Source of the DNA: a virus
Taxonomy: Duplodnaviria > Heunggongvirae > Uroviricota > Caudoviricetes
Reading direction: 5' to 3' (one strand)
Virus record (IMG/VR): IMGVR_UViG_3300032074_000001
Length of the DNA stretch: 13,180 bases
A program made the position numbers and the translations under genes. Positions 8,253 to 11,317 of the stretch are shown piece after piece; position 1 is the stretch's first letter; each line of letters begins with the position of its first letter. Below the pieces are notes generated by a model, which saw nothing but the letters and a program-made list of their open reading frames with translations, was not told the DNA's origin and ran no database searches.

Positions 8253-10949
8253 ATGCAGATCGTACGGACGCCGAAGCGGCGGATGCAGATCCAGCGGACG
8301 CCTCGCTGGTGGTCTCTCCACACGCACTCGCGGTACTCCAACAACGACGCGCTCCCGGCTGTGTCTGACATCGTGGCGAAGGCCGCAGCCTTGGGCCAGA
8401 AGGCTGTAGGTCTCACCGACCATGGCAACATGGCCGGGAGCGTGGAGCTGTACCAGGCGTGCAAGAAGCATGGTCTGGCCCCCTTCCCTGGGTCAGAGAT
8501 GTACTTCGTGCCCGACATCTCGCAGCACAAGAAGGACTACGCCGACAAGAACAAGAAGGCGTCCAGGTTCCACCTGGGCGTGGTCGCGTACTCCACCGAG
8601 GGCTACGAGAACCTGGTGCGGCTGTCCACGGTGAGCCACCAGCAGCACTTCCACAAGCCGCTGGTGGACTTCACAACCCTGGCTCAGTTGGCGGACGATG
8701 GTCGGACCAAGGGTCTGGCGATCACCACCGGGTGCTACTTCGGCTACGCGGTGCAGACCCTCGTCAACGAGGGGGATGAGGCAGTTGAGCGCTACCTCGC
8801 CACGCTGGAGTCATGGTTCCCCGAGTCGGTCTACGTCGAGATTCAGAACCATCACATCGATCACGATGATCACTGGTGCGATGATCTCGTTGCCGATCAA
8901 CTTGTGGATGTTGCGGATCGCATGGGACTTCCTGTGGTCATCACGCAGGATTCGCACTACCTAGAGCCTGAGGACAAGAGTGACCACGAGGCCCTCAAAC
9001 GACTCGTCGCCTTCGGACCCGAAGCAGACGATGCAGTCTTCCCCGGTGATGGCTTTCAGTTCGGAACTGAGGACTGGATCAGAGACCATCACCGTGACCA
9101 TCGGCTTGCGCGAGGACTGGAAGGACTGGACCATCTCCTCGCTCGCCATGAACTCCGAATCCCGGTCCTTGACTCTTACTCTTACGCGGTCCCCGCAGTC
9201 GTAGCCAGCCCGCAGCAGGCCATGGAGGATCGCTGTCGGCAGGCGCTGGCGGCGAAGGATCTCTACACGCCCAAGTACATCGACAAGCTGACCGAGGAGT
9301 TCGACACCATCAAGGCGTCGGACATGGCTGGCTACATGATGCTGGTGGCCATGGTGACCGACTGGCTCACCGAGGAGGGCGTGCCGTTCCAGACCCGTGG
9401 CTCTGCCGCTGGCTCCCTGGTGTGCTGGCTGTTGGGGATCACCCAGGTGGACCCGATCAAGTGGGACCTGCGCTTCGACCGGTTCTTGTCCAAGGACCGC
9501 ACCAAGCCCCCGGACATCGACCTGGACATCGCCCACGACCGGCGTCAGGAGCTGATCGACATGCTCGACACCCGGTTCTCGGCGCACCAGATCGGCTCCT
9601 GGGCCACCTACGGCATGGACAACGACGAGGGTGAGGACAAGGGCTCGCTGCTGAAGCGGTACTTCAGCCGCAACAAGCACCGGGAGAACCCCATCGAGAA
9701 GTGGGAGGACATCCCCGAGGCCGACCGCAAGATGCTCTACCGGCTCTCGGACCGGAACCTGTTCTCCGGGATGGGCACCAACGCGGCGGGCGTGGTGATC
9801 ACCAGCACCAAGGAGGAGTTCGACCGACTGGTCCCGCTGGCCTACATGAACCGTGGCGGCTTCGTCACCCAGTACTCCAAGGACGACATCGAGGCACTGG
9901 GCCTGGTGAAGCTGGACGTGCTGGGGTCCAAGACCCTGACCGTGCTGCGCCGCACCATGGACAACCTGGACCTGCCGGTCTCGGCGCTGCTGGAGATCCC
10001 GCTGGGGGACAGACCCACCTTCTCCTTCATGCGCAAGGGCGACACCGCTGGCATCTTCCAGCTGGAGGGCTACACCTCGGCCAAGGGTGTGAAGCGGCTG
10101 CGTCCGAGCAGCATCAAGGACGTGATCGCAGCCATGGCGCTGTTCCGCCCCGGCGCGATGATCAGCGGAGGCACCGACGCCTTCATCCGCCGCAAGCACC
10201 GGGAGGAGCAGGTGCCCGAGCGACACGCCTTGGTCTCTCGGGTCACCGCCTCTACCTACGGGGTGATGCTGTACCAGGAGCAGGTTATCGACATCCTGCG
10301 TGGCCTGGGCATGGACGCCGACAACCTCACCAAGTTCCTGAAGGCAGTCAAGGCGTCGAACAAGAACATCGGAGCAGCCGCCGAGGTGATCGCCTCCTAC
10401 AAGGGCTGGATCGATGACAAGACCACCGAGATGGGGATGAGCGATGAGGACAAGAGGTTCTTGGACGAGTCGATCCAGGGGTTCAGCGAGTACGGCTTCA
10501 ACCGGGCGCACGCGACGGTTTACGGTCTTACTGCTTACCGCTGTGCTTGGCTGGCTGTTCACCACGGCGTTGAGTTCCACGCTGCTCTTCTTGCTGTGGC
10601 GGCGGGCGATCCAAAGAAGGAACCCGGCTACGTTACGGCTACTCGTAGGCGAGGGATCAAGATCAGCCGAGCCGACATCAACGTCAGCGGAGCCACCTAC
10701 ACCGTTGATCGGCGCACTGCGAGCATCCGGCGCGGTCTCCAGTCTCTTGACGGAATCGGAGAGACGGTTGCTGCCGCCGTGGTGGGAGCAAGAGCGGACC
10801 GACCGTTCGCAGATGTCGCAGATCTGGTGCGACGAGTACCTGCGCGACCTGTGAGCGGCGGCAAGAACTACGCCAAGGAGGGCCTCGACGGGCTCACCGG
10901 GGTGCTGCGCAAGCTGTACGAACAGCACGCACTGGACTCGATCCTGTGA
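8253..10949 (+). CDS. dnaE: DNA polymerase III alpha subunit (DnaE-like), compact, PHP intact
   Basis: PHP HTH..D, TDHG, GSE, FHL, TTGC, QDSH; RGSAAGS; PDIDLD; KLDVLG; GIFQLE; YQEQ; YGFNRAH; HhH GLQSLDGIG. Confidence 0.97.
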   Translation: MQIVRTPKRRMQIQRTPRWWSLHTHSRYSNNDALPAVSDIVAKAAALGQKAVGLTDHGNMAGSVELYQACKKHGLAPFPGSEMYFVPDISQHKKDYADKNKKASRFHLGVVAYSTEGYENLVRLSTVSHQQHFHKPLVDFTTLAQLADDGRTKGLAITTGCYFGYAVQTLVNEGDEAVERYLATLESWFPESVYVEIQNHHIDHDDHWCDDLVADQLVDVADRMGLPVVITQDSHYLEPEDKSDHEALKRLVAFGPEADDAVFPGDGFQFGTEDWIRDHHRDHRLARGLEGLDHLLARHELRIPVLDSYSYAVPAVVASPQQAMEDRCRQALAAKDLYTPKYIDKLTEEFDTIKASDMAGYMMLVAMVTDWLTEEGVPFQTRGSAAGSLVCWLLGITQVDPIKWDLRFDRFLSKDRTKPPDIDLDIAHDRRQELIDMLDTRFSAHQIGSWATYGMDNDEGEDKGSLLKRYFSRNKHRENPIEKWEDIPEADRKMLYRLSDRNLFSGMGTNAAGVVITSTKEEFDRLVPLAYMNRGGFVTQYSKDDIEALGLVKLDVLGSKTLTVLRRTMDNLDLPVSALLEIPLGDRPTFSFMRKGDTAGIFQLEGYTSAKGVKRLRPSSIKDVIAAMALFRPGAMISGGTDAFIRRKHREEQVPERHALVSRVTASTYGVMLYQEQVIDILRGLGMDADNLTKFLKAVKASNKNIGAAAEVIASYKGWIDDKTTEMGMSDEDKRFLDESIQGFSEYGFNRAHATVYGLTAYRCAWLAVHHGVEFHAALLAVAAGDPKKEPGYVTATRRRGIKISRADINVSGATYTVDRRTASIRRGLQSLDGIGETVAAAVVGARADRPFADVADLVRRVPARPVSGGKNYAKEGLDGLTGVLRKLYEQHALDSIL
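8698..8964 (+). CDS. Putative overprinted single-TM protein in +1 frame of dnaE (88 aa; alternative start ATG 8776)
   Basis: 17/32 dnaE codons at 8841-8936 end in A/T; +1 frame reads ITSITMITGAMISLPINLWMLRIAWDFLW-SSRR. Confidence 0.55.
   Translation: MVGPRVWRSPPGATSATRCRPSSTRGMRQLSATSPRWSHGSPSRSTSRFRTITSITMITGAMISLPINLWMLRIAWDFLWSSRRIRTT
8980..9204 (+). CDS. Putative overprinted soluble protein in +1 frame of dnaE (74 aa)
   Basis: SD GAGGA 5 nt before GTG 8980; 31/74 dnaE codons at 8982-9203 end in A/T; stop made by rare GTA codon. Confidence 0.5.
   Translation: MTTRPSNDSSPSDPKQTMQSSPVMAFSSELRTGSETITVTIGLREDWKDWTISSLAMNSESRSLTLTLTRSPQS
10444..10854 (+). CDS. Putative overprinted single-TM protein in +1 frame of dnaE (136 aa)
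   Basis: 15/26 dnaE codons at 10518-10595 end in T, giving RR-FTVLLLTAVLGWLFTTALSSTLLFLLW-RR; codon bias reverts right after the TGA. Confidence 0.65.
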   Translation: MRTRGSWTSRSRGSASTASTGRTRRFTVLLLTAVLGWLFTTALSSTLLFLLWRRAIQRRNPATLRLLVGEGSRSAEPTSTSAEPPTPLIGALRASGAVSSLLTESERRLLPPWWEQERTDRSQMSQIWCDEYLRDL

Positions 10950-11317
10950 GCGTCCGCGATCAGGTGGTTGCCCGTGCCTGGGGTCGGTGCGAGTGCATGA
11001 TTCGTATCGGTGGACGGTGGACGCGCTGCTGGCGCAAGCCCATCGAGATCCACCACATGCTCACAAGAGCACGGGGAGGTCTGATCTTGGATGCAGCGGG
11101 GGAGACCGCTCACCTGATCGCCCTGTGTCCCGGACACCACAGAGTGGCTCACTCTCCCAACGGCCACCGGGCAGGACTGATGATGAATGGCTATGTCACC
11201 ACAGGAGAGGACGGCCTTCCTGTATACGCGGGGTCGGACCCAAGGCTCGCCGGACACATCCGAACCATGGACGTGCCAATGCTGCCGCCTCACCTATCCG
11301 GTGACTCATCTAGCTAG
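10946..11317 (+). CDS. HNH endonuclease family protein
   Basis: RCEC...C...EIHH..R.RGG....HLIALCPGHHRVAH pattern; GTGA-coupled to dnaE. Confidence 0.85.
   Translation: MSVRDQVVARAWGRCECMIRIGGRWTRCWRKPIEIHHMLTRARGGLILDAAGETAHLIALCPGHHRVAHSPNGHRAGLMMNGYVTTGEDGLPVYAGSDPRLAGHIRTMDVPMLPPHLSGDSSS

Follow-up and report, generated by a model that had tools for sequence, protein, structure and literature searches.

The window analysed here is a stretch of 13,180 nucleotides from an IMG/VR viral contig of 40.6 kb and 62% G+C (record IMGVR_UViG_3300032074_000001, Caudoviricetes). It holds a replication module encoding a DnaB-like helicase, a primase, a single-stranded DNA-binding (SSB)-like protein, a DnaE-like DNA polymerase III alpha subunit, an HNH-like open reading frame (ORF) and a Cas4-like exonuclease. 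Inside the polymerase gene, dnaE, at a site between the fingers and HhH regions, lies a second ORF in the +1 frame. The original prediction, made before any comparison with relatives, was that this ORF is a real gene for a single-pass membrane protein. That claim is now supported by constraint on specific synonymous sites in nine dnaE genes, by a sister clade that lacks the constraint and by a second +1 motif written in rare codons at the C-terminal end. Dual coding under selection is well supported by these comparisons, and 10444–10854 quite probably holds an overprinted gene in the +1 frame whose product crosses the membrane once. The features of the locus are as follows.

8253–10949, + strand: dnaE, the enclosing gene, for a DnaE-like DNA polymerase III alpha of 898 aa (Pfam PHP, DNA_pol3_alpha, DNA_pol3_finger, HHH_6)
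10438–10440, + strand: +1-frame TGA that closes the frame just 5' of the nested ORF, formed by the dnaE pair Met-Ser/Asn/Thr (ATG A..) in seven of the nine clade members described below
10444–10854, + strand: nested +1 ORF of 136 codons, wholly within dnaE, from ATG 10444 to TGA 10852–10854

Codon composition of the nested frame

A patch of T-ending dnaE codons at 10518–10595 was central to the original prediction, and its count of 15 in 26 codons is confirmed. This is the maximum for any 26-codon window of the gene, and it is also the top window of the whole contig, where the runner-up outside dnaE has 12. The frequency of T at the third codon position (T3) is 0.24 in the overlap versus 0.09 upstream of it. 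The G+C content of third positions (GC3) falls from 0.86 upstream to 0.64 over the overlap and then rises to 0.94 after the +1 stop; 29 of the 31 codons 3' of that stop end in C or G, which is the return to such endings that had been described. The +1 peptide reads as it was quoted, RTRR-...-RRAIQRR around an Arg-flanked hydrophobic segment, and the two dnaE codon pairs said to avoid a +1 TGA, CTT.ACT (10527) and GTT.ACG (10632), are both present. The third position of dnaE is the second position of the +1 frame, where a T gives Phe, Leu, Ile, Met or Val and never a stop. The T-richness, the hydrophobicity and the missing +1 stops are therefore one signal and not three.

Is the ORF then simply a product of chance? 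Alternative-frame ORFs are common in GC-rich genes, and a T3-rich patch is automatically hydrophobic and free of stops in the +1 frame. When the DnaE protein was held fixed and its codons were redrawn, the probability of finding no +1 stop in the 102-codon core of the ORF was 0.07 with gene-wide codon usage and 0.54 with local usage, for this single genome. Stop-prone DnaE dipeptides are few in this region, with only 0.5–2 +1 stops expected per lineage from the DnaE sequence, so that an open +1 frame is mild evidence only. A 238-aa +2 ORF (9701–10417) and a 655-aa codon-aligned antisense ORF (8961–10928, minus strand) are also found inside dnaE. From this genome alone the nested ORF is not convincing; its significance comes from the relatives of dnaE. 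There, the sense +1 frame is the only alternative frame that is free of stops in all lineages. The +2 and antisense ORFs are not conserved, and coding by them was rejected, as the stops in relatives mark them as ordinary GC-rich artefacts; they served as useful negative controls. Chance also leaves unaccounted for the fixation of T3 in nine lineages at exactly the NCN codons (those with C in second position) while their neighbours vary, the absence of this pattern from the sister clade, and the rare-codon Glu-Tyr-Leu motif at the end of the ORF, each of which is described below. We consider a chance ORF very unlikely.

Third-base constraint among relatives of dnaE

The relatives comprise about 60 dnaE genes with 38–82% identity, collected by scans of viral and metagenome contigs and by DnaE protein look-ups; three close DnaE relatives in ENA (P0006, P0008 and P0013) are absent from the DNA-level comparison. 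Over the homologous region the +1 frame is open in every dnaE gene with at least 59% identity, and it contains 1–10 stops in those with 54% or less. In an IQ-TREE phylogeny the open group splits into a nine-member clade in which the +1 segment is hydrophobic (the window, L084, L092, L019, L095, L094, L093, L002 and L097; 66–82% DnaE identity) and an eleven-member sister clade (L036, L008, L085, L010, L005, L007, L006, L009, L012, L004 and L096). The transmembrane (TM) state of the +1 segment thus maps to a single clade, with support of 100/99. Within this TM clade the full-length frame is open to the same stop in six of the nine members, and at least the 80 N-terminal codons are open in all nine. 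The original prediction had named dnaE homologues with +1 stops as the finding that would speak against a gene. Such homologues exist, all of them outside the clade in the range of 54% identity or less, a distribution consistent with a de novo gene confined to one lineage.

The TM clade is well diverged at silent sites, with a pairwise synonymous codon identity of 0.48–0.72. Six codons of the patch have an invariant T3 in all nine lineages (ACT10530, GCT10533, GCT10545, GCT10581, GCT10584 and G/TCT10593), and each of these gives a +1 Leu. Third-position G is likewise invariant in all nine at GCG10512 and ACG10515, which give the +1 Arg-Arg that precedes the hydrophobic segment, and at GTG10596 (+1 Trp) and GCG10602 (+1 Arg). 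Between these columns lie Tyr, Gly, Arg, Cys, His and Val codons whose third bases vary freely. The +1 variants that result (Thr/Met, Val/Gly/Ala, Ala/Gly, Val/Ala and Thr/Ile) are nearly every one membrane-compatible. These interleaved variable sites also rule out recent gene conversion as the cause of the invariant columns.

The constraint follows the class of the codon. Across the nine lineages the NCN codons of the patch have T3 at a frequency of 0.75 versus 0.18 in the rest of the gene, and C3 in 0 of 81 cases versus a frequency of 0.42, so that +1 Leu is kept and +1 Pro is excluded. At NGN codons, where T, C and G are all TM-compatible in the +1 frame, there is no excess of T3 (0.15 versus 0.18). 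Among fourfold-degenerate columns with an invariant amino acid, the third base is itself invariant in 8 of 14 in the patch versus 8 of 149 elsewhere (Fisher 2.8e-6), and it is an invariant T in 5 of 14 versus 0 of 149 (P=2.2e-6). Invariant non-preferred codons occupy 11 of 407 amino acid-invariant columns, and all 11 fall in two clusters, at 8994–9168 and 10515–10584.

Beyond the patch, two other parts of the ORF show conserved codons. Immediately 3' of the hydrophobic segment the dnaE codons GGA (7/9), GAT (8/9), CCA (6/9) and AAA (7/9) are kept; the last of these, at 10617, encodes Lys with a codon whose share in the rest of these dnaE genes is 0.004. At 10833–10847, in the six full-length lineages, GTA, CCT and GCG are present in 6/6 and each CGA in 5/6, which yields the +1 sequence E-Y-L-R-D just before the shared stop. 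The shares of GTA and CGA elsewhere are 0.075 each. In the middle of the ORF (10653–10802) an invariant codon is found in 0 of 17 amino acid-invariant dnaE columns.

The sister clade serves as a control. It has the same DnaE residues at the columns of the patch and a similar divergence (synonymous identity 0.63 versus 0.59), yet 0 of 17 columns have an invariant third base, and its +1 peptide is non-hydrophobic and near random expectation. That the same residues are encoded with free third bases argues against a cause in the DnaE protein or its folding. The sister frame has properties of its own: it is open for 127–194 codons and Arg-rich, and its patch NCN codons are depleted of C (0.12 versus 0.49) and enriched in T (0.29 versus 0.09). 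Its product may be fast-evolving, or the frame may be a proto-gene or a relic of composition.

A cluster of rare codons might instead serve DnaE itself, for example through translational pausing for co-translational folding of the fingers and HhH regions. Rare codons are known to be conserved at specific positions in genes, the patch does consist of non-preferred codons at conserved positions, and there is a second rare-codon patch in the PHP region. Any rare codon would serve to slow translation, however, and the NCN codons of the patch take T only, with A3 at 0.01 versus 0.13 elsewhere. The Tyr, His, Gly and Arg sites alternate freely between common and rare codons, while several invariant codons are fairly common (GCG has a share of 0.31, and GTG is in the 0.30–0.50 class). 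Moreover, the same domain is folded in the sister clade, where the pattern is absent. Pausing is, in our view, very improbable as the cause.

The bases could also be constrained at the nucleotide level, by an RNA structure, a protein-binding site or an internal promoter. The 14-nt run TTCCACGCTGCTCT, identical in eight of the nine lineages, would suit such an element, as would the somewhat low synonymous variation just 5' of the ORF (0.63 at 10383–10457). Against it, RNAalifold gives a covariation term of +0.48, which is no support for a structure, and the single-sequence fold has a z of -0.84. The bases under constraint extend over 90 nt and lie 330 nt apart, and they follow the rules of +1 codon class and TM compatibility, which no nucleic-acid motif predicts. 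A nucleotide-level element has a very low probability as the explanation.

The predicted protein and its translation start

The predicted product can be divided into five parts from its hydropathy, the codon conservation given above and an AlphaFold2 (AF2) model, with the confidence of the model expressed as its predicted local distance difference test score (pLDDT).

10444–10518, + strand: Arg/Ser/Thr-rich N-terminal region, residues 1–25, ending in the invariant Arg-Arg from GCG10512 and ACG10515 (9/9)
10519–10599, + strand: predicted TM helix, residues 26–52, a hydrophobic 27-mer (hydropathy, invariant T3, AF2)
10600–10620, + strand: basic juxtamembrane stretch RR-(A/E)-I-Q-R-(R/K), for which non-preferred dnaE codons are kept in most lineages
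10621–10776, + strand: variable, probably disordered linker (AF2 pLDDT below 50 at residues 63–107)
10777–10851, + strand: C-terminal helix with a conserved W-C/W-x-E-Y-L-R-D at its end (AF2 helix 112–135, pLDDT 57–72)

All nine sequences have a hydrophobic stretch with RR on both sides, as a bitopic protein should. The +1 26-mers contain 0–2 TM-incompatible residues (charged, Pro or amide) versus 5.6–7.7 expected, and the mean Kyte-Doolittle hydropathy of the nine helices is 1.2–2.0 versus -0.1 to -0.6 expected. AF2 places a helix at residues 18–59 with a pLDDT of 80–92. It is likely from these properties that the product spans the membrane. The invariant (T/M)-R-R, followed by a Ser/Thr/Gly-containing hydrophobic stretch of about 26 residues, also has the look of a twin-arginine translocation (Tat) signal. 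A Pfam scan at E<=1 returned no Tat-signal family and only PF19428 Sema4F_C, at E=0.034, which is a chance match.

An in-frame ATG lies between the upstream +1 stop and the helix in all nine lineages. The null probability of such an ATG is 0.18–0.81 per lineage, and the product of these is 7e-4 if the lineages are independent. The arrangement suggests that translation would begin by internal initiation on the dnaE mRNA. An alternative is programmed +1 frameshifting out of dnaE, by which a shortened polymerase would acquire a tail that anchors it in the membrane. The two frames adjoin without a gap, and a replisome tethered to the membrane is conceivable. The +1 stop directly upstream, in seven of the nine lineages, leaves only about 70 nt for the shift, and 10441–10511 contains no conserved shift-prone site and no conserved rare 0-frame codon. 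With an ATG available in every lineage as well, we consider frameshifting extremely unlikely.

Several observations, in addition to the single-genome stop probabilities given above, weigh against a functional membrane protein gene. Averaged over windows of 25 codons, synonymous divergence is not reduced (observed/expected 1.05 for the four closest relatives, namely the window, L084, L019 and L002), as a chance ORF would have it; the same average is 1.21 in the sister clade, and the constraint is visible per column only. Three members of the TM clade, L019, L095 and L094, have premature +1 stops at about codons 82–125. Their TM part is kept, the stops fall within or past the linker, and DnaE itself has diverged around them. 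In L019 (3686–3988) the helix holds an Arg and an Asp, four residues apart, which could be a compensating pair or a sign of gene decay. The position of the ATG is not conserved, and by eye the Shine-Dalgarno (SD) sequence is weak or absent before most candidate starts; the SD before ATG 10444 had been called weak in the original prediction, and we agree. Both flanks of the helix are basic, so that the topology is not given by charge. The product has no homologue among 5.8 billion proteins, in Pfam or in the ESM Atlas (no usable match), and a PHROGs search with all nine products gave nothing below E=0.06. With no homologue anywhere searched, a function is not transferable from a known protein. 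All of the sequences are metagenomic, and the nine lineages are akin, so that P values computed as if the columns were independent are approximate. Finally, the sequencing runs listed with the sequence are three soil-metagenome DNA runs, with no RNA run among them.

As a separate observation, L019 has four +1 stops after codon 101.

Origin, role and comparison with known systems

How might such a gene work and how might it have arisen? The comparisons show that selection on the +1 frame fixes certain third bases of dnaE while the DnaE sequence is kept throughout. A fixed T after C or T gives +1 Leu or Phe, a fixed G in GCG or ACG gives +1 Arg, and the fixed rare codons CGA, GTA and CCT give +1 Glu-Tyr-Leu. 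The product of an overprinted gene at 10444–10854 would be an orphan of about 136 aa with a basic N-terminus, an Arg-flanked TM helix, a basic juxtamembrane stretch, a variable linker and a conserved C-terminal helix. It would be translated by independent initiation within the dnaE mRNA, here from ATG 10444 with its weak SD, and would be produced together with the replication genes and inserted in the host cytoplasmic membrane. The gene would have had a single origin, on the stem of the clade of nine, in a +1 frame open beforehand.

Any role is more doubtful. One tentative suggestion, which we hold with low confidence, is that the product acts on the membrane as an accessory protein in the early or middle phase, for instance in superinfection exclusion, host takeover or lysis timing, and is not a part of the replisome. 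A holin was rejected, as the neighbours are replication genes and not a lysis cassette, and there is no holin family match in Pfam or PHROGs. A lysis protein of the phiX174 E type was also rejected, since no homologue was found and the predicted helix, from which Pro is excluded, is internal.

A second low-GC3, T3-rich region of dnaE is found in the +1 frame at 8808–9204, at the end of the PHP domain, and is open in almost all of the 20 members of the two clades. Its +1 peptide, I-x-L-R-E-x-W-K-D-W-x-I-S-S...S-R-S-L-T-L-T-L-T-R, is conserved in both clades. At 9084–9186 codons are invariant in 15/23 columns of the sister clade versus 97/332 (P=7e-4), and in 6/16 in the TM clade, which is not significant. 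The rare GTA at 9201, which gives a +1 TAG, is kept in eight of the nine members of the TM clade. A second overprinted gene may lie here, or some other element.

A wider reading, which is possible and somewhat short of probable, is that this lineage carries several overprinted +1 genes on its replication genes, with at least two in dnaE (including 8808–9204) and possibly one in the primase gene, and that the case at the C-terminal end of dnaE is a series of gene birth. The steps would lead from outgroups with +1 stops, through the open, unconstrained and Arg-rich frame of the sister clade, to a constrained TM protein whose C-terminal motif is conserved.

The nearest cultured relatives of this dnaE are DnaE-like genes of Gordonia phages, at about 36% amino acid identity by tblastn, and megablast gave no match to cultured phages. 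With cultured relatives of the polymerase only about 36% identical, the informative relatives are all metagenomic. The relationship to Gordonia phages makes a Gram-positive host likely. Downstream, the next ORF (10946–11317) has a GTG start at 10946 that overlaps the dnaE stop, and a weak match to HNH endonucleases (phrog_740, E=3e-4). An identical DnaE protein (P0001) is on record on a contig of 77,180 bases. Since completeness is estimated at about 50% for the contig analysed here, public assemblies probably include a full-length genome of the phage.

Gene callers forbid genes nested in genes, and such proteins are therefore invisible in phage annotation. In the present case a clean signature of dual coding in an essential replication gene can be read codon by codon from comparative genomics alone, with the sister clade as a natural negative control. 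If its product is confirmed, the ORF would add to the known orphan membrane proteins one that is made with the replication genes, and would be a dated example of how a gene arises de novo by overprinting in a GC-rich phage genome. It would also provide a search rule for hidden genes in GC-rich phage and bacterial genomes, namely patches of T-ending NCN and NTN codons that are invariant among relatives.

Documented overprinted proteins come mostly from small RNA or single-stranded DNA (ssDNA) viruses. To our knowledge, comparative proof in large double-stranded DNA (dsDNA) phages outside the lysis cassette is scarce, and beyond spanins of the Rz/Rz1 type there are few well-supported embedded genes. 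An overprinted gene of this kind in a phage dnaE was not reported in the literature searched. The predicted protein resembles de novo viral proteins overprinted in the +1 class in being a taxonomically restricted orphan that is largely disordered outside one element.

The closest likeness is to gene E of phiX174, which lies within gene D. There, the T-rich third positions of D are the second positions of E and give it a Leu-rich TM domain (PMC8227390). Like the gene predicted here, E is contained entirely in the +1 frame of an essential gene and encodes a lineage-restricted orphan with a single Leu-rich TM helix. Unlike the 5-kb ssDNA phage phiX174, the phage here is of a GC-rich dsDNA tailed type of about 77 kb, and the enclosing gene is a replicative polymerase and not the scaffold gene D. 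The helix is internal here (residues 26–52), after a basic N-terminus, whereas that of E is N-terminal, and the two share no sequence similarity. There is no sign of a lysis function in the present case.

The second likeness is to Rz1 of lambda, the o-spanin, which is embedded in the +1 frame of the i-spanin gene Rz, is translated by internal initiation and has an envelope-associated product (PMC6139136, PMC5295617). The gene predicted here has this arrangement too, likewise in a tailed dsDNA phage. Rz1 differs in being a lipoprotein, with a signal peptide and a lipobox, whereas no lipobox is found here, and the likely host here is Gram-positive. Rz1 also works with the product of its enclosing gene in a lysis cassette, whereas the gene that encloses this ORF encodes a replication enzyme.

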